64,000 bases of DNA from Patescibacteria group bacterium (GTDB lineage: Bacteria; Patescibacteriota; Patescibacteriia; GWA2-46-9): the NCBI GenBank assembly GCA_041675205.1, contig JBAYUF010000002.1:1731-65730 (forward strand), in the 5' to 3' direction. Below the pieces are notes generated by a model. The model was not told where the DNA came from. It saw nothing but the letters and a program-made list of their open reading frames with translations, and made no database searches. The position numbers were made by a program, and so were the translations under genes. The stretch's first letter is position 1, and every line of letters starts with the position of its first letter. This document shows positions 11,569 to 56,720 of the stretch, in pieces.

Positions 11569-13221
11569 TTATGGTACTAACCGTAGATGAAATGCGGCAA
11601 CACCATAGTGTCGCGAATGATCTTGATAGCGGGTTGCTAACCATAATAAAGCTTCCGATGCTGTTTCAAAGCCTAAATCAAATGGATGGTGCGCTGCAAC
11701 CAGATGGTCAAAAGATGCATACGGCCGAATAGACTCGACCGCCAATCGAACGCAATGAGCACCGTTTCCTTCTTGATAACACAGCAGTATGTCGCCTTCG
11801 CGAACCCGTTCATGGCCACCAGCTAGTAAGCGCGGGTCAACCCGTCGCCGTCCACTAGAAAGTAGTGAAAACGAAAACGCATCATATTCAAATACATGTA
11901 CCCGTCGTGTTTCTAATAAGGGCAGCGCCATAAGCACCCAAAATAATATGGAGAGGTCATTTTTAAAATACGGAACATCCACCAGCCCATGAATAACTAA
12001 CGCCAACATTGCGGCAATTGCTCCAGCAACTACCGGGCTATTCCGTCGCGGCCAGGCATGAACAAAAAAGGCCGCGAGCAGCCAGACAAATGCGAGGAGA
12101 CCAGCCAGACCAAGCTCTACCCAGGCATTTAAGAAAAGATTATGTGGGTAGAGAAATATTTCTATTTTGTAGGGCGTAATATTTGGTCGCCAATCTACAT
12201 GATACGGTGCAACTGCTTGCTGATAATTTGCTAAACCGGCGCCTGTTATGGGGTGGTCTTTTATAAGCTCGACAGTCTCTTCCCATACCGCCAACCGCAT
12301 TGCGCCGGACGGCGCGCTAAATGAAAAGCTTTGCTCAACTTTTAATCTGAGTGTTGGCACAAAAGCCAAAAAGCCGACAAATAAGAATGCTGCGCCTACG
12401 ACAACTACTCGGTGTCGATTTTTTGAAACAAGCAAGATGGCGACAAAGGTACTAATGGCCACCCCCAACCACGCACCTTTCGTTTGAGACAAAACAATGG
12501 CGCTCACGCCAAAAATAACGACAATGAGCGACCACCAAAATGATTGCTGCCGACGATATGAAGTTATGAGGAGCGGGATGTAAAGCGCAATAATTGGCGC
12601 CAGCAACAGACCAACAGCATTGGGGTATGGAAAAACGCTTGTGAATTTTAAAACCGCTGCACTGGCGTATGGCTCTGGTACGTAGCCAGTGAAGTACTGC
12701 AACCATGCACCCATAGCGACAAAAATCGCGAGGCCACCGAGAGCGTGGAGCAGCCAAATTCGTTCACGTGCGCCACGAAATTCGATAACCAGGATAGTGA
12801 AGAGCAGCATGGGATCAATAAAGTACGCCTTCCAGGCGCCAAGTGCGGCATCAATATTTGGCGAAAGAATTGCGCTGACTGTAGCGGTTAACAAAAACGC
12901 AAGTAGTGGGTAAAGAACGGGATGAAAAGGATTGTCAGTACTTACGGTGCTTCCTGCTGGTAGCCGTGGCCAACCATGGTGGCGGACCATTCTCAAAAAC
13001 CAAACAGCCGCGACAACAGTGATGGTTAGTTCAAGAAGTGTTGTTGGGATACCAAAGAGCTCAATCCGGACGAGATACGTTGGGAGTAAAAAAACAATTA
13101 AAGCCAGCGCCCTTTTAGGTGCTCGGTACGTGAGCAAAGCAAAACTAAGTAAGTAAGCGCTTATTAAAATCGTAGAATCCATGATTTTATTATACCGCAA
13201 AACTAAATTCCCGGGTTGCAA
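11569..13221 (-). CDS. O-antigen ligase (Wzy_C/RfaL)-family polytopic membrane protein fused to a C-terminal ASCH-like domain
   Basis: 550 aa with ~11 TM helices. The O-antigen-ligase hallmark is SQTKGAWLGVAISTF. The C-terminal ~100 aa (...GDILLCYQEGNGAHCVRLAVESIRPYASFDHLVAAHHPFDLGFETASEALLWLATRYQDH...) resemble the ASCH/PUA-like fold. Confidence 0.65.
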   Translation of the reverse strand: MQPGNLVLRYNKIMDSTILISAYLLSFALLTYRAPKRALALIVFLLPTYLVRIELFGIPTTLLELTITVVAAVWFLRMVRHHGWPRLPAGSTVSTDNPFHPVLYPLLAFLLTATVSAILSPNIDAALGAWKAYFIDPMLLFTILVIEFRGARERIWLLHALGGLAIFVAMGAWLQYFTGYVPEPYASAAVLKFTSVFPYPNAVGLLLAPIIALYIPLLITSYRRQQSFWWSLIVVIFGVSAIVLSQTKGAWLGVAISTFVAILLVSKNRHRVVVVGAAFLFVGFLAFVPTLRLKVEQSFSFSAPSGAMRLAVWEETVELIKDHPITGAGLANYQQAVAPYHVDWRPNITPYKIEIFLYPHNLFLNAWVELGLAGLLAFVWLLAAFFVHAWPRRNSPVVAGAIAAMLALVIHGLVDVPYFKNDLSILFWVLMALPLLETRRVHVFEYDAFSFSLLSSGRRRVDPRLLAGGHERVREGDILLCYQEGNGAHCVRLAVESIRPYASFDHLVAAHHPFDLGFETASEALLWLATRYQDHSRHYGVAAFHLRLVP

Positions 13222-13248: not shown

Positions 13249-14670
13249 TCACTTTTGAAACGTGGTCCGTGCATCAAAAAATAATTGACGAACCAGTGGA
13301 CTAGAAACAAATAACACAAGGGTGTAGACAAGTACGGCAAACGGAATAACTAACCATAGAACAAAACTACTGGCGTAAATTAGCCACGCAACCATGACAG
13401 CGGTAGCCAACATTGCGGGCAGTATACTAGCGAGTCGGAACCGAATACCCACTGACACGAGATACCCAAACAGCAAAACGGCAATCAGCAGCTCCACTGC
13501 CACGGTCATGCTTGCCGCACCCAATGCCCCAAAACGAGGAATTGCGATGACATACCCGAACAAGCTTACTGCGGCAGCGACCGCATACGCCCAAAGCACT
13601 TTGCGCTGCTGGCCAATTGCAACAATGAGATGCCCGAAGTAGGTACCAATAAATATTATGCCCGTCGCAATGCCAAGTAACTGTAGAACTGGTGTACCAA
13701 GCGCCACGAACTCTTGTCCAAAGTAGACGGTGAACCGTGGAGCTGTCATTACGACACCCACCGCGATGGGAAAAGCAAAATAACACACGGCTGCAAATCC
13801 GTTTTGCGTGATGCGTCGGAAACGATCTTTGTCTTCTGTGAGCCACGCTGCCGTTAGTACTGGAAGTAGCAGACCAACAAACATGGTGGGGAACGTAATG
13901 AGCACTTCTAAGACCCGATACATTGCTCCGTACACACCAACTTCTGCTTCGTCGCGCACGAAAGAAAGTATAAGGGTGTCGGCTTTTAGATAGACAAGGT
14001 TTAAAACAACGCCAAGCGCAATCGGCCATGAGCGCTGCCAAATGAGGCGCCATAATTCACTGTCATACGCGAAACGCAAACGAACGAATGGCCGTGCCAA
14101 CCAAGCCGCAACCGCTACGTTAACTATGCTTGAAACAGTAACTGCTAAGGCAATAAAAAGTATCCCGCGCCCGGTGGCTATAGCCGCAACAACGGCGAGT
14201 AGAAGCACCAATCGGGAAAGTACCTCGGCAATAGTCGCTCGCCAAATGGTAAGTGTTTGCTGAAACAGACCAGTAAACACCTGGAGCACTGCGACGCAGA
14301 CAAACGACAGTACCAATACAACCACACCTTGTTTCACAAGCAAGCTGTATGGAAATAGCCAAACAAGCAGTGGGGCAAGAGCAAGAGCGAATAAGGCGGT
14401 GACAGCACGGAATGCCAATACATTAGAAAATACTTTTTGCCGGTCGGTGGTAAATTCTGCAAATAGCTGGCTACTGACGAGTACCAATCCTAAATCAATC
14501 GCTACTGCAAAGAACTGCAGGTACGTTGTCATGATGGTATACGTCCCATAACCACCGGCACCAAGGTAGTTGGTCAGTAAAAGTACTACCCCCCAACCAA
14601 GCGCGATGCTGAGTATTTTACCGACGGACTGAATTATTGTATTTGTCGCTAGGCGCCCGGAAAGTGACAT
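13249..14670 (-). CDS. polysaccharide biosynthesis protein / Wzx-type flippase (MOP superfamily)
   Basis: 473 aa with ~14 TM helices. The N-terminal pattern (TIIQSVGKILSIALGWGVVLLLTNYLGAGGYGTYTI) is typical of Wzx/MurJ-like exporters. Confidence 0.75.
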   Translation of the reverse strand: MSLSGRLATNTIIQSVGKILSIALGWGVVLLLTNYLGAGGYGTYTIMTTYLQFFAVAIDLGLVLVSSQLFAEFTTDRQKVFSNVLAFRAVTALFALALAPLLVWLFPYSLLVKQGVVVLVLSFVCVAVLQVFTGLFQQTLTIWRATIAEVLSRLVLLLAVVAAIATGRGILFIALAVTVSSIVNVAVAAWLARPFVRLRFAYDSELWRLIWQRSWPIALGVVLNLVYLKADTLILSFVRDEAEVGVYGAMYRVLEVLITFPTMFVGLLLPVLTAAWLTEDKDRFRRITQNGFAAVCYFAFPIAVGVVMTAPRFTVYFGQEFVALGTPVLQLLGIATGIIFIGTYFGHLIVAIGQQRKVLWAYAVAAAVSLFGYVIAIPRFGALGAASMTVAVELLIAVLLFGYLVSVGIRFRLASILPAMLATAVMVAWLIYASSFVLWLVIPFAVLVYTLVLFVSSPLVRQLFFDARTTFQK

Positions 14671-14671
14671 A

Positions 14672-14700
14672 TTGACACGTTGGCAAGGCTATGCTAAAGT
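14672..14700 (+). promoter_or_regulatory. sigma70-like promoter: TTGACA - 17 bp - TAAAGT
   Basis: -35 TTGACA at 14672-14677, exact 17-bp spacer, -10 TAAAGT at 14695-14700. It faces the structured element downstream. Confidence 0.45.
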
Positions 14701-14707
14701 TTTCTGT

Positions 14708-14866
14708 TTTGAGTTCGAGGAACTGCATCCACGACAAGCGTGGGGTCTTCGGGCGGAGGCAATCTTGGTGCTTGCACTCAGATTTTCCCCACTTCGGGCC
14801 TCTTGGATGCAGTTCCCCGGTCGCAAAACAAACAAGCTCGCACTAGTGTGCGAGCTTGTTTTCTTA
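14708..14866 (+). ncRNA. candidate small structured RNA (~160 nt) bounded by the promoter above and an intrinsic terminator
   Basis: A 13-bp perfect long-range stem (GGAACUGCAUCCA 14719-14731 with UGGAUGCAGUUCC 14804-14816) encloses an inner GUGGGG/CCCCAC stem and small hairpins. The terminator hairpin 14832-14859 plus U-run follows. No conserved protein is encoded (ORF 14672..14896 rejected). Confidence 0.4.
14830..14866. terminator. rho-independent terminator hairpin ACAAGCUCGCAC-uagu-GUGCGAGCUUGU with U/A runs on both sides (bidirectional)
   Basis: 12-bp perfect stem. T-run TTTTCTTATT on the + strand and TTTGTTTTG on the - strand. It lies at the 3' end of the minus-strand gene 14864..15076. 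Confidence 0.7.
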
Positions 14867-15076
14867 TTCGTCGGCGTTCAAAATTTCATTGAGTAATTCT
14901 CTTGTCTGGTCACGTCGGTCATCCGTGGCCGCACCGTCAACCGCTACGACTAACTGCAATACGCTGCCTTCGGCCGCTTCGTCCGGGAGCTCGGCACTTG
15001 GCCAATAAATTTCTTGACCATCGCTTGTCCTGAGAATTGCATCGTCTCCTTCAAACCGATCAATAGTTGCTTCCAT
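14864..15076 (-). CDS. DUF3006-family small protein
   Basis: 70 aa. MEATIDRFEGDDAILRTSDGQEIYWPSAELPDEAAEGSVLQL matches the DUF3006 pattern (IDRFEGD.AVL....G....P...LP..A.EG.VL). Confidence 0.55.
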   Translation of the reverse strand: MEATIDRFEGDDAILRTSDGQEIYWPSAELPDEAAEGSVLQLVVAVDGAATDDRRDQTRELLNEILNADE

Positions 15077-15083
15077 ATGTATG

Positions 15084-15533
15084 TTAGGTTACAACGCGCA
15101 CGGTAACCGCGGTTGGTTCACTGCGCGTAAGAGTAATTGTTAATACACCGTCTTGCATTGTAGCGGTAGCGCTGTCTGCTTGTACTGACACCGGAAGGAC
15201 AACGGAACGTGAGAATGCCCCCCAATAACATTCCTGCACCATATACTGCTTAACTTCTTGGCTGTACTTTTCATGACGTTCACCACGAACAGTTAGAAGA
15301 TCGTTGTGCAGCGCGATAACGATATCTTCTGGTCGAACACCAGCAATGGCGCTCTGAACAACCACCTGACTATCGGTCACATAAACATCTAGCGCAAGAG
15401 CACCCTCAGATGTGGCTGATTGAAATGCTTCGTCACTTCGCGCAATCGGAGGCGTGAACACTGCTTCGGCACGATCACTCACCGGTACAGAATGCACCGG
15501 GGTTCGTTTCGATTTTTTAAAAAGCCATGCCAT
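15084..15533 (-). CDS. Hsp20/alpha-crystallin family small heat-shock protein
   Basis: It has an alpha-crystallin domain: ALDVYVTDSQVVVQSAIAGVRPEDIVIALHNDLLTVRGER...GAFSRSVVLPVSVQADSATATMQDGVLTITL. The start was chosen at internal MAWLFKK (15533). The track ORF extends to 15701. Confidence 0.8.
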   Translation of the reverse strand: MAWLFKKSKRTPVHSVPVSDRAEAVFTPPIARSDEAFQSATSEGALALDVYVTDSQVVVQSAIAGVRPEDIVIALHNDLLTVRGERHEKYSQEVKQYMVQECYWGAFSRSVVLPVSVQADSATATMQDGVLTITLTRSEPTAVTVRVVT

Positions 15534-15579
15534 AGTATGAACGCCGTTCAGTATACTGAGGTCTGCTGTCTGTAGCAAG

Positions 15580-16677
15580 TTACTTGGGATTAACTGCCTC
15601 CGCGCTTCTGAGCGACGGAACAAAATGCACCCACAGTAAGCCGGGGGCAATGGGTACGGCATTCCCATCTTTGTCGAAGTATTGCAGCGGCCCGTCAGCA
15701 TTCACCTTGCTCCACGAAATTGAATATTGCTGACCATTCCGGAGTAGTAGCGCTTTGCCACTACCCGTAACTCGCACGGTAACCGCATCGGGCACCCCAG
15801 GGCGAGGTGCTGGCAAAACGTCTGTTTCAAGTAGTAGGACCGTAGCGGCACGAATAGTTTCATGCGTGGTTCTGTCGATTGCTTCTACGCCACCAATGAA
15901 CCGTTCATAGCCCTGATTGCCTTCATTCCACTTCCACACGGTTTGGTATGTCAGGAGTGACGACGGTGAAACGCGCACCTGCGAAGCAGCCACACCACCA
16001 CCAGGCGCATTGTCGTGCGCCGCCATTGCCGTAACACCCGGCCATACTAACCAGTCGTTCGAGGCGGCCAAAAGGTCTAACTGAAAAATACTAGAAAACA
16101 AATTGTGAGGAGCGGGACTGCTTGATTGCCTTGCGTAGTACTTACCATTACGAAACTCGTCTGCATCGAGCAATCCGGTATTTTGTTTTAATCGCTGAAG
16201 CGCCAACGGACTGCCACCCGAATGCACATAGAGAGCATGAAAGCCTTGAACAATTGGCAGGACATACTCTCGAGCAGAACGTACCGGACCAATAACCACA
16301 TTCTCATCTGTTTGCCACAGTGCTAACAACCTCGTAAGCCCACCTTCAACTGGAAATTCAAACACAACGGCAGCTTTACTTAACCCTGCGGCCGGTCGAG
16401 CCGCAACACTATTATCGATCATGGCGGCAATGGGTAGTTTTGTGGCAACGGTGAGTGAAACCGGAGAACCGTTTAATAATGACGGCGTCGTTGTTACTGC
16501 TGGTGCTACTACTGGCACGACAGGTGCGGGTTGTGGTGATTGTAAAATAAAAAAGTATACGAGCAACGCATTCGTGATTACCAAAAGCCACAATGTGACG
16601 AGCCAACTATGTCGCCGCAGTAGGCCGCGCAAAATAACCCACGAGCGCAAAACCTTCGTACGAACCTGATTCAACAT
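15580..16677 (-). CDS. DUF3048 domain-containing (YerB-like) membrane-anchored protein
   Basis: 365 aa with an N-terminal TM anchor. IDNSVAARPAAGLSKAAVVFEFPVEGGLTRLLALWQ matches the DUF3048 N-terminal signature. Confidence 0.6.
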   Translation of the reverse strand: MLNQVRTKVLRSWVILRGLLRRHSWLVTLWLLVITNALLVYFFILQSPQPAPVVPVVAPAVTTTPSLLNGSPVSLTVATKLPIAAMIDNSVAARPAAGLSKAAVVFEFPVEGGLTRLLALWQTDENVVIGPVRSAREYVLPIVQGFHALYVHSGGSPLALQRLKQNTGLLDADEFRNGKYYARQSSSPAPHNLFSSIFQLDLLAASNDWLVWPGVTAMAAHDNAPGGGVAASQVRVSPSSLLTYQTVWKWNEGNQGYERFIGGVEAIDRTTHETIRAATVLLLETDVLPAPRPGVPDAVTVRVTGSGKALLLRNGQQYSISWSKVNADGPLQYFDKDGNAVPIAPGLLWVHFVPSLRSAEAVNPK

Positions 16678-16679
16678 AC

Positions 16680-18023
16680 CTACACAATGAGCGGCAGTGA
16701 CTCTAGAGGAAAGTGTTCATCGGTTATAACGCTCTCTATTCGATACGCACCGTGGGTTGGTGCTTCGATGTAGCCGCTCCACGCCATCTTGGCGAGACCA
16801 CCACTTGCCACCCAGTCAAAGAGCCACTCGCCAACATACTTTGGGTTATGCTGCGGCACACCACCTCCAACCGTTTGCAGCCAACGCGCGTTAAACTCTT
16901 CCTGAGATCCAAGCGGGGGAGCAATAATTATTGGTAATCCTGCGCCAGCATAGAAAGATTGTTCTGATGGTTTCGTCCACAAAACATCCGTCGTCGCTAG
17001 TCGCTTTGTGTAATCACGGAAGTAGTCGTGACGACTTTTTGTGTAGTAAACATGTACGCTACTGCCAAGATATTTCGTTAGGCGCAGATCGCTGACTGCT
17101 TTCTTGTAGAGGTCGCGAACACCGCGATGCGTGCCGGCTTCAAGGTTAAACGTAATCTCGTTTCTGGCAATACGAACACGGAGCGACTGCAGTGCCTCAA
17201 CGCCAATTTTTGCTTGCGCTCCGGCACCACCAACAGCGAAAGTAACAGTGAGCGACCGTGGTTGCGGTCGACTATGCCAATCGCGACCAAAGTGCTGGTG
17301 CAACGTTCGGTCGTACTGCTTTCTGAAAATACCATTTGGGTCAAGATTATTGAGTCGTCGCGAAATTTGACGCCGGAGCTGTGCTGGGTCTGGCCCGTCA
17401 ACTAATTCTTTTGGTAGGGGGAAACCAGTCAAGAAAATGTTCTCCTCGGGCACCCCATAGAGCTTCAACCGTTCTACCACTCTGCCGGTCGGGGCAAAAT
17501 ATTTAATGCGGCTTTGCTTTGGGTCAAGCGCTGCCCACGCTCTGCTAATATCGGCGTCAGTTACCACGCAATATATTTCCCCGGGGTAGCCATAATATTC
17601 AGCGGCAAACGCCGGAAGAAAAAAGGTTGTAACGAGTGGTAAATTTTTTCGTCGGAGACGATCAATCAGGTCGCGCATGAACTCATGCTTCTCCATCATT
17701 CGATACAGTTCACGAACTTGGAGGGTGGGGCGAGATAAATCACGACGTGGATAGAACGGCTGAATCTCTTGCAGCTTATCGTACGTTTCAAAAATGAACT
17801 GCCCCACAAGCGGCACGGTGCTGAGGCGTGAAATAGCCTCATAAAATTTTCTTCCTTGCTGCCAAAGCTGTAAATCCTTAGCTGGAATACCATCGTAATT
17901 ATTCGCCGTTACAATGTCGCCTGACGCAATGTGCCGTAAACCAAAAGCGGCGCGCTCGTGACCATATCCCATGTCGACCGATACAACCCACGCTTTCTGT
18001 TTTACTATACTGTTTTGTTTCAT
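16680..18023 (-). CDS. glycosyltransferase, MGDG-synthase/UgtP-like (GT28-related) family
   Basis: 447 aa. The N-terminal VVSVDMGYGHERAA resembles the G(N/Y)GH motif of the MGDG-synthase N-domain. A C-terminal GT-B Rossmann half is present. Tentative. Confidence 0.45.
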   Translation of the reverse strand: MKQNSIVKQKAWVVSVDMGYGHERAAFGLRHIASGDIVTANNYDGIPAKDLQLWQQGRKFYEAISRLSTVPLVGQFIFETYDKLQEIQPFYPRRDLSRPTLQVRELYRMMEKHEFMRDLIDRLRRKNLPLVTTFFLPAFAAEYYGYPGEIYCVVTDADISRAWAALDPKQSRIKYFAPTGRVVERLKLYGVPEENIFLTGFPLPKELVDGPDPAQLRRQISRRLNNLDPNGIFRKQYDRTLHQHFGRDWHSRPQPRSLTVTFAVGGAGAQAKIGVEALQSLRVRIARNEITFNLEAGTHRGVRDLYKKAVSDLRLTKYLGSSVHVYYTKSRHDYFRDYTKRLATTDVLWTKPSEQSFYAGAGLPIIIAPPLGSQEEFNARWLQTVGGGVPQHNPKYVGEWLFDWVASGGLAKMAWSGYIEAPTHGAYRIESVITDEHFPLESLPLIV

Positions 18024-33282: not shown

Positions 33283-33603
33283 AGAATGAGTAACTTTTAT
33301 AATATTACTAATTCTAGATGTTTCACTAATTCTTGTCAACAAACTAAATGTTTGTAGAACTTATACTTGGCCAATTTTATAGAAATAGGCCATAATGATT
33401 GCGACAATTGAATTGCCTAAACCACTGGGTAACCAGCGGCATGGCAAGAAATCCCACAACGATACTGAACCCCGTGTTCAGCGACTCGTTGTGGGTCATA
33501 TCCCGAAAGGGGTATGGGGCAGAAAGGCTCAGCTGGCGCGGGGCTCTGTGTTGCACCCCAAGCGCCTTGCTACCTACAAGTCGCTTATTTTTATTTTATT
33601 CAC

Positions 33604-56456: not shown

Positions 56457-56529
56457 GGGCCCGTAGCTCATCTGGTAGAGCGCTGCATTCGCATTGCAGA
56501 GGTAAGGGGTTCGATTCCCCTCGGGTCCA
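56457..56529 (+). tRNA. tRNA-Ala (anticodon CGC)
   Basis: GGGCCCGTAGCTCATCTGGTAGAGCGCTGCATTCGCATTGCAGAGGTAAGGGGTTCGATTCCCCTCGGGTCCA has anticodon loop UUCGCAU and the G3:U70 pair. No CCA is encoded. Confidence 0.85.
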
Positions 56530-56568: not shown

Positions 56569-56720
56569 TGTAGAGAGAGGGGAATCGAATACCACAGGTA
56601 CTTCCTTCGGTCGCGGGGAACAGCTGGCGGTGAGGAGTGTCTGAAGGTATCCATTACGTCGTATGACGGCTGAATTATGAACAGCTTTCCTACTGCTTCG
56701 TCCTAGGGTAAAGTAAAAAT

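Follow-up and report, generated by a model that had tools for sequence, protein, structure and literature searches.

This work reports a stand-alone structured small RNA (sRNA) gene of about 160 nt, which is predicted from its near-consensus σ70-type promoter, its terminator and its covarying fold at 14706-14868 on the plus strand of a 64-kb contig stretch (64,000 nt of JBAYUF010000002.1, hereafter the window, to which all plain coordinates refer). The DUF3006 protein and the flippase encoded on its two sides carry the source name of an uncultured Patescibacteria-group bacterium. That the element is a real sRNA gene of the plus strand we hold to be very probable. The promoter and the terminator are kept on this strand in seven of seven lineages and enclose a covarying fold, which supports the stand-alone sRNA that an earlier note, made before any database search, had proposed at this place. 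Judged from the alignment of these lineages, the conserved hallmark of the RNA is a 10-nt bulge, CGACRAGYRU, beside an invariant 8-bp helix. The RNA is best filed as a new family, absent from Rfam 15, whose known range is the seven lineages, an Uhrbacteria-related clade of Patescibacteria. A role in cis-antisense control of the adjacent flippase operon is weighed below against its alternatives.

Promoter, terminator and predicted transcript

The element occupies a 193-nt gap (14671-14863) among genes that all lie on the minus strand according to Pfam annotation. On one side, and divergent from it, lies the gene of a MOP-family oligosaccharide flippase (Polysacc_synt; 13249-14670), and on the other side a DUF3006 gene (14864-15076), which is convergent with the sRNA gene, has a common terminator with it and is itself preceded by an Hsp20 gene. 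The promoter, TTGACA-17-TAAAGT at 14672-14700, is present as the earlier note described it, with the -35 box at 14672-14677 and TAAAGT at 14695-14700; what that note missed is the TG at 14692-14693, which turns the -10 box into an extended one (TGcTAAAGT, 14692-14700). TTGACA is invariant in all seven lineages, and so are the position and the key bases of the extended -10 box (TGnTAnnnT after a 17-nt spacer), while the spacer sequence itself diverges. The pattern TTGACA-N14-TGNTANNNT has the sRNA promoter as its single exact match in the 64 kb, and with one mismatch allowed it gives 5 matches, against 1.26 expected. From the position of the -10 box, the transcription start site (TSS) would be at about G14706, and the transcript is predicted to end at 14868 within a U-rich stretch.

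The intrinsic terminator spans 14830-14868 (plus strand) and consists of a hairpin (14830-14861) with the loop UAGU, followed by the tail UCUUAUU (TCTTATT in the DNA). Here the hairpin and the U-rich tail of the earlier description stand, and only the length of the stem has to be corrected, from 12 to 14 bp. A hairpin followed by U-rich sequence is found on the same strand in seven of seven lineages. In the window, an A-rich run (AAAACAAAC) leads into the stem, and the terminator therefore appears to be bidirectional; the L006 hairpin, read in the same way from the sequence, has its U-rich tail in the orientation of the RNA strand only.

Conserved fold

The minimum free energy (MFE) of the window element is -80.5 kcal/mol on the plus strand, with z = -7.8 relative to dinucleotide shuffles. 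The proposed 13-bp closing stem proved correct, as GGAACTGCATCCA (14719-14731) is perfectly complementary to TGGATGCAGTTCC (14804-14816). The 13-mer arm has no second copy in the window, and the inverted repeat of which it is part reaches 35 nt per arm with 80% complementarity, the longest in the window.

The RNAalifold consensus of the seven sequences is one unbranched rod with a 124-nt body, and the homologs folded singly give the same architecture. Its outermost helix, P1, pairs 14707-14731 with 14804-14828 (alignment columns 2-26 with 100-124) and comprises 23 pairs, 11 of them with double changes. P1 includes the 13-nt arm on each side, and its inner 8 bp, UGCAUCCA:UGGAUGCA, are invariant. 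Next to this inner helix follows, on the 5′ side, the 10-nt bulge CGACAAGCGU (14732-14741), which lies opposite the single base U14803 and whose consensus, CGACRAGYRU, is near-invariant in the seven lineages. Neither the consensus fold nor the MFE folds of the homologs L006, L016, L020, L024 and L025 pair the bulge; in L015 and in the consensus-constrained fold of the window its ends form a small local hairpin. Beyond the bulge, P2 pairs GGGGUCU (14742-14748) with GGGCCUC (14796-14802), showing compensatory changes in five of its seven pairs and a G·U at its second position in five of seven lineages. P3 pairs GAGG (14756-14759) with CCCC (14787-14790), the middle A being unpaired. The rod is closed by the apical hairpin P4 (14763-14782; 14763-14771 with 14774-14782), whose GGUG:CACU stem is invariant, including an invariant G·U, and whose loop varies, being CUUG in the window and UUUA, CCCC, UCU or UGUCC elsewhere.

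Standard pairs fill 93.0% of the cells of this consensus, compared with 80.8 ± 1.4% in column shuffles, of which none out of 500 reached the observed value, and sliding the partners by 1-3 columns leaves 33-51% paired. At 21 of the 41 pairs both sides have changed in at least one sequence. The covariation also decides between two folds of the inner part. The MFE fold of the window uses GUGGGG:CCCCAC, and the consensus-compatible fold, with GGGGUCU:GGGCCUC, is 2.1 kcal/mol less stable; it is the latter pairing only that the covariation supports. The nested GUGGGG/CCCCAC and GCAA/UUGC hairpins of the earlier note are thus found in the MFE fold of the window and are not kept in the six other lineages. 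Similarly, the two CUUCGGGC motifs to which that note drew attention are present in the window, where CTTCGGGC occurs twice (14747-14754 and 14792-14799), and are rejected as a family feature, as the other six lineages are without them.

Occurrence and conservation in Patescibacteria

The comparative search and the Rfam scan that the earlier note had suggested as checks were both run, and the former showed the segment to be conserved, with compensatory substitutions both within the 13-bp stem and outside it. Seven distinct RNA sequences were obtained, namely that of the window and six homologs from Patescibacteria contigs (lineages L006, L015, L016, L020, L024 and L025), Candidatus Uhrbacteria included. 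A search with the DUF3048 protein encoded near the element led to one syntenic lineage (L006/L007), in which the proteins are 43-62% identical to those of the window and a 196-nt gap aligns with the window gap in conserved blocks and with compensatory changes. A profile search with the two flippases then yielded about 22 more relatives at 47-61% identity, including Candidatus Uhrbacteria RIFCSPLOWO2_12_FULL_46_10, and the contigs of these flippase relatives gave L015, L016-L019, L020-L023 (the Uhrbacteria lineage), L024 and L025. The near-identical contigs L002, L003 and L004 carry the RNA unchanged; the substitutions of L003 lie in the terminator loop and in the coding sequence around the element.

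The seven host loci range from 38.5% to 57% in GC content, and the proteins encoded beside the homologs share only about 50% identity with their counterparts in the window. Pairwise comparison of the nucleotide sequences gives an average identity of 64.5% in the RNA and of about 55% in the coding sequences on its two sides. The invariant or near-invariant blocks are UGCAUCCA-CGACRAGYRU-G on the 5′ side, GAGG (UAGG in L025), GGUG…CACU, and CUUGGAUGCA on the 3′ side. The rod starts 21-25 nt after the -10 box, except in L020, where it starts 61 nt after it and extra 5′ and 3′ sequence adds outer helices. This Candidatus Uhrbacteria copy (L020 2620-2852; GCA_001791055.1, MGDV01000036.1, and near-identical contigs) is longer by about 38 nt after the TSS and is also extended in its 3′ part, and in the MFE fold the added sequence pairs into the additional outer helices. 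The L025 copy (about 2700-2820 on the minus strand of its locus) has about 75 nt between rod and terminator, and this spacer holds another TTGACA; in its terminator stem two U·G pairs are possible on the RNA strand only.

The flippase gene is adjacent and divergent to the RNA in seven of seven lineages. DUF3006 adjoins the RNA in six of seven, and in the Uhrbacteria locus L020 a VanW gene stands between DUF3006 and the RNA, which stays by the flippase; the downstream neighbor, DUF3006 or in L020 VanW, is convergent with the RNA, and none is on the RNA strand. All homologs were obtained through flippase synteny, so that this linkage statistic is partly circular, the sampling covering syntenic copies.

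The covariance model built from the alignment (R1) scores 106-124 bits on the seven homologs, its match in the window (14706-14829) having 124 bits. Neither in the window nor in non-syntenic Patescibacteria loci did it reveal a further convincing copy, the best additional match, inside a coding region, having 19.7 bits, and it found no RNA in the loci of DUF3048 relatives at 32-42% identity (L005 and L008-L013), which are without the hsp20/flippase synteny. The DUF3006 protein search returned the query itself only, and a genome contig search with the flippase gave only an unrelated Faecalicoccus match. For metagenome contigs the pattern CACGACAAGC…TGGTGCTTGCAC was used, which had been drawn from two homologs only and was too strict. 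Its sole match (L014 1745-1781), on a GC-rich unrelated contig, is put down to chance, as the covariance model does not match there; this contig nevertheless shares TGCATC-ACGACAAGC with the RNA. Viral contigs, searched with a refined pattern, gave no match.

Comparison with known RNA families

The earlier note could not match the element to RNase P RNA, SRP RNA, tmRNA or 6S RNA, and the Rfam scan agrees, since it found no known family. Against Rfam 15, no family was matched consistently at E ≤ 10 in the three lineages compared (window, L024 and L020), and literature searches on the motif sequence and on sRNAs of the candidate phyla radiation (CPR) returned nothing relevant. The sub-threshold matches, to Leu and Thr leaders, MicC and miRNAs, are driven by the terminator or random. 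The best of them is the Leucine operon leader (RF00512; 33.9 bits), which likewise has a long hairpin followed by a terminator. This identity is rejected, given that the score falls short of the gathering threshold (50), that the matched letters lie mostly in the terminator hairpin, that there is neither a leader peptide nor a leu operon downstream, and that the match is absent in the homologs.

At gathering score, the window contains LOOT RNA (RF03000) and five tRNAs, and no other Rfam family. LOOT RNA resembles the sRNA in being a stand-alone intergenic and covariation-supported orphan with no downstream gene on its strand, and both occur in the same genome. The sRNA, however, has no sequence or structure match to LOOT RNA and differs from it in its single unbranched rod, its conserved 10-nt bulge and its fixed flippase neighbor.

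Possible function

Based on the position of the gene, we give a slight preference, as the explanation of the whole, to an sRNA gene with cis-antisense control of the flippase/Wzy operon, perhaps with a protein partner in addition. Taken by itself, the antisense coupling to the flippase is a tentative part of this proposal. The sRNA gene fills the whole spacer in front of a co-directional operon for envelope glycans, comprising the flippase gene and the gene of a Wzy_C protein (11569-13221, minus strand, 550 aa), and lies on the strand opposite to it. In the window, 1 nt separates the flippase start codon from the -35 box of the sRNA, and the stretch between the sRNA promoter and the start codon leaves little or no space for a flippase promoter in the window, L015 and L025. 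A promoter scan of the lineages found no conserved σ70-like promoter of the flippase strand in the gap. With no such operon promoter in the spacer, the flippase transcripts would start upstream and therefore cross the sRNA gene in antisense; a possible upstream source is a promoter-like site of the Hsp20 gene (15578-15550), combined with read-through of the terminator. The sRNA may then act in cis, through head-on transcription (interference), through RNA duplex formation and processing, or through both, and the antisense action would set the expression of the flippase and Wzy genes.

Such an arrangement has a precedent in GadY of Escherichia coli, an antisense sRNA that is encoded in cis, in the spacer between the co-directional genes gadX and gadW, and directs the processing of the gadXW mRNA. 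As with GadY, an sRNA gene with its own promoter and terminator lies inside the spacer of co-directional genes on the opposite strand, and the sRNA would therefore be fully complementary to any read-through or leader transcript. Unlike GadY, with which it has no sequence homology, the sRNA has far more conserved sequence and structure than antisense pairing needs, and the overlapping flippase transcript is hypothetical. Because the invariant bulge and helices exceed what antisense pairing requires, the invariant 8-bp helix, the 10-nt bulge and the GGUG:CACU stem suggest an additional sequence-specific partner, most likely a protein.

Several points weigh against this explanation. The TSS, the 3′ end and the flippase leader transcript are all deduced from sequence, and the comparison comprises only seven distinct sequences, fetched by way of flippase synteny. 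In the window and in L024 the terminator looks bidirectional by eye and could stop transcripts from upstream before they reach the sRNA gene, and in L020 and L024 the flippase start is about 130 nt away from the sRNA promoter, a distance that could house an unrecognized flippase promoter. Strong conservation of the primary sequence is unexpected for a purely cis-antisense RNA. RNAduplex comparison of the bulge with the translation start regions of the neighboring genes at the seven loci gave no consistent target in trans, and the complement of the bulge region has 3 matches in the window, the RNA's own site among them, against 1.04 expected, which is not clearly above chance. As for the strand, the consensus folding energy is alike on the two strands (-44.04 and -44.05) and uninformative as a strand test, and P1 taken alone is strand-neutral, with 7 G·U and 7 A·C cells.

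The strongest alternative is a protein-binding or housekeeping-type RNA that acts in trans, as a scaffold, a decoy or a miniature functional analog of 6S or SRP RNA, and has no functional tie to the flippase. In that case the bulge and the invariant helices would be a protein recognition site and the genomic position a historical accident. This alternative is unlikely. In its favor, the sRNA promoter is the strongest-looking one in the window, the invariant nucleotides lie in the helices and the bulge with the apical loop free to vary, a pattern typical of the RNAs of ribonucleoproteins (RNPs), no consistent base-pairing target is found nearby, and the RNA sequence has been kept across host loci of such different GC content. 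In shape, too, the sRNA resembles 6S RNA (RF00013) and SRP RNA (RF00169): its 5′ and 3′ ends pair to give an elongated, mostly double-stranded rod, the conserved nucleotides cluster about an unpaired region in the interior, the apical loop varies and the promoter is strong. However, neither RF00013 nor RF00169, nor any other Rfam family, is matched at E ≤ 10 in the three lineages compared. The unpaired region of the sRNA is a one-sided bulge (10 nt against 1 nt) in place of the two-sided bubble of 6S RNA, its body has only about 124 nt, compared with about 180 nt, and it lacks both the conserved GNRA loop and the domain IV motif of bacterial SRP RNA. An action in trans is also at odds with the strict flippase synteny, seven of seven lineages, and with the failure to find the RNA in loci of more distant Patescibacteria, of which only short genome pieces were covered.

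A bolder version, which we regard as improbable, makes the RNA the core of an unrecognized Patescibacteria RNP, a strongly expressed rod on which a conserved protein would bind to the invariant bulge and helices. In one form it would be a miniature functional 6S analog acting on RNA polymerase, in another a partner of the envelope-glycan export machinery. The ASCH domain, whose fold is linked to RNA binding and nucleoside chemistry, was observed at the C-terminus of a Wzy_C membrane protein encoded downstream of the flippase in L015 (4525-6147, the ortholog of window 11569-13221; 29.7 bits, cut-off 21.2), and precomputed annotations give a weaker ASCH match in L016, L017, L018 and L025. The 550-aa ortholog in the window has no ASCH match at E ≤ 1.

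Strand assignment and remaining alternatives

The earlier note had argued that the element, lying between two minus-strand genes, is not the 5′ leader of either. This reasoning is invalid, because on the minus strand the element is directly upstream of the flippase gene, and a leader consequently had to be excluded on other grounds, which are the polarity of promoter and terminator and the balance of G·U against A·C. Of the 286 cells, 266 are canonical when read on the plus strand and 241 when read on the minus strand; the plus-strand reading includes 32 G·U and 7 A·C. Broken down by helix, P1 is neutral, as stated above, and P2-P4 have 25 G·U and no A·C on the plus strand; each of these G·U pairs turns into a C·A mismatch when the minus strand is read. 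P2 drops out of the minus-strand consensus, whose covariation term is halved (2.61 versus 5.11 on the plus strand). With the promoter, the terminator and the G·U/A·C asymmetry all pointing the same way, we conclude that the structure under selection is that of the plus-strand RNA, although a minus-strand transcript could form the P1 hairpin.

A structured 5′ leader of the flippase mRNA, riboswitch- or attenuator-like, with the plus-strand promoter being incidental, is for these reasons very unlikely. It would account for the position of the minus-strand element directly upstream of the flippase in seven of seven lineages with no separate flippase promoter in the gap, and it is compatible with P1 and the consensus energy, which do not distinguish the strands. 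It would leave without explanation why the -35 box, the extended -10 box and the terminator tails are conserved on the plus strand. In the window, moreover, terminator and rod lie too close together for a minus-strand promoter to fit between them; as judged by eye, neither a Shine-Dalgarno sequence nor a terminator expression platform follows the rod, and no riboswitch of Rfam is matched. By eye, the flippase genes are mostly without a recognizable Shine-Dalgarno sequence (window 14640-14671; L006, L015, L016, L020 and L025), the exception being L024, which has AAGGAAG.

An element acting at the DNA level, such as an inverton, an operator palindrome for the polysaccharide locus or a REP/MITE-like repeat, would be suggested by the perfect 13-bp inverted repeats around a 72-bp segment beside polysaccharide-export genes, which superficially look like phase-variable capsule promoters. 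This is hardly credible, considering that G·U pairs persist where the two sides are no longer complementary as DNA (the 32 cells mentioned), that the promoter lies outside the repeats, that 15 of 15 element-bearing contigs show one and the same orientation towards the flippase, that Pfam reveals no recombinase gene nearby, and that pattern search and covariance model find one copy in the 64-kb window. A small protein can be dismissed almost entirely, since the plus-strand open reading frames (ORFs) of 50-74 aa that overlap the segment (e.g. the 50-51-aa ORFs 14691-14846 and 14740-14892) run through the terminator, the conservation tracks helices and not codons, and the spacing of the invariant blocks, 71-74 nt, puts them in frames 1, 2, 2, 0, 2, 2 and 0, with indels that are not multiples of three.

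The surrounding locus

Upstream of DUF3006 on the minus strand lie an Hsp20 gene (ORF 15084-15701), whose start is assumed at about 15533 (ATG) from the 149-aa gene call on the near-identical contigs, the DUF3048 gene (15580-16677) and a gene for a DUF6938 protein (16680-18023). The promoter-like sequence TTGCTA-17-TATACT (15550-15578, minus strand) precedes the shorter Hsp20 start, so that Hsp20 and DUF3006 may form a heat-shock bicistron of their own, ending at the bidirectional terminator common with the sRNA. Elsewhere in the window, the LOOT RNA is full-length (33414-33530, plus strand; 88.1 bits against a gathering score of 46.4) and constitutes a second orphan structured RNA of the same genome. 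The end of the T-arm (56510-56522) of the tRNA at 56457-56529 has a perfect 13-nt inverted copy 54 nt downstream (56577-56589), which may be a terminator, the remnant of an integration site or a chance match.

Conclusions

In conclusion, the new RNA family resembles orphan structured sRNAs in kind, GadY in arrangement and 6S and SRP RNA in shape, and by the comparisons made it belongs to none of the families named. Its computational support is unusually clean, since promoter and terminator are both conserved, the helices covary and the strand signal is clear, and the seed alignment and the covariance model R1 are ready for a new RNA family. The prediction that follows is concrete, namely a transcript of about 160 nt from about 14706. 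The Patescibacteria (CPR), mostly uncultured and with tiny genomes, are a group for which, to our knowledge, few regulatory RNAs have been described. The sRNA locus is tied to genes that build or export cell-surface glycans; these bacteria are proposed to live attached to a host and dependent on it, a lifestyle in which the cell surface is central. If the RNA should prove widespread or protein-bound, it would represent a new RNP in a lineage whose core machinery is often atypical.

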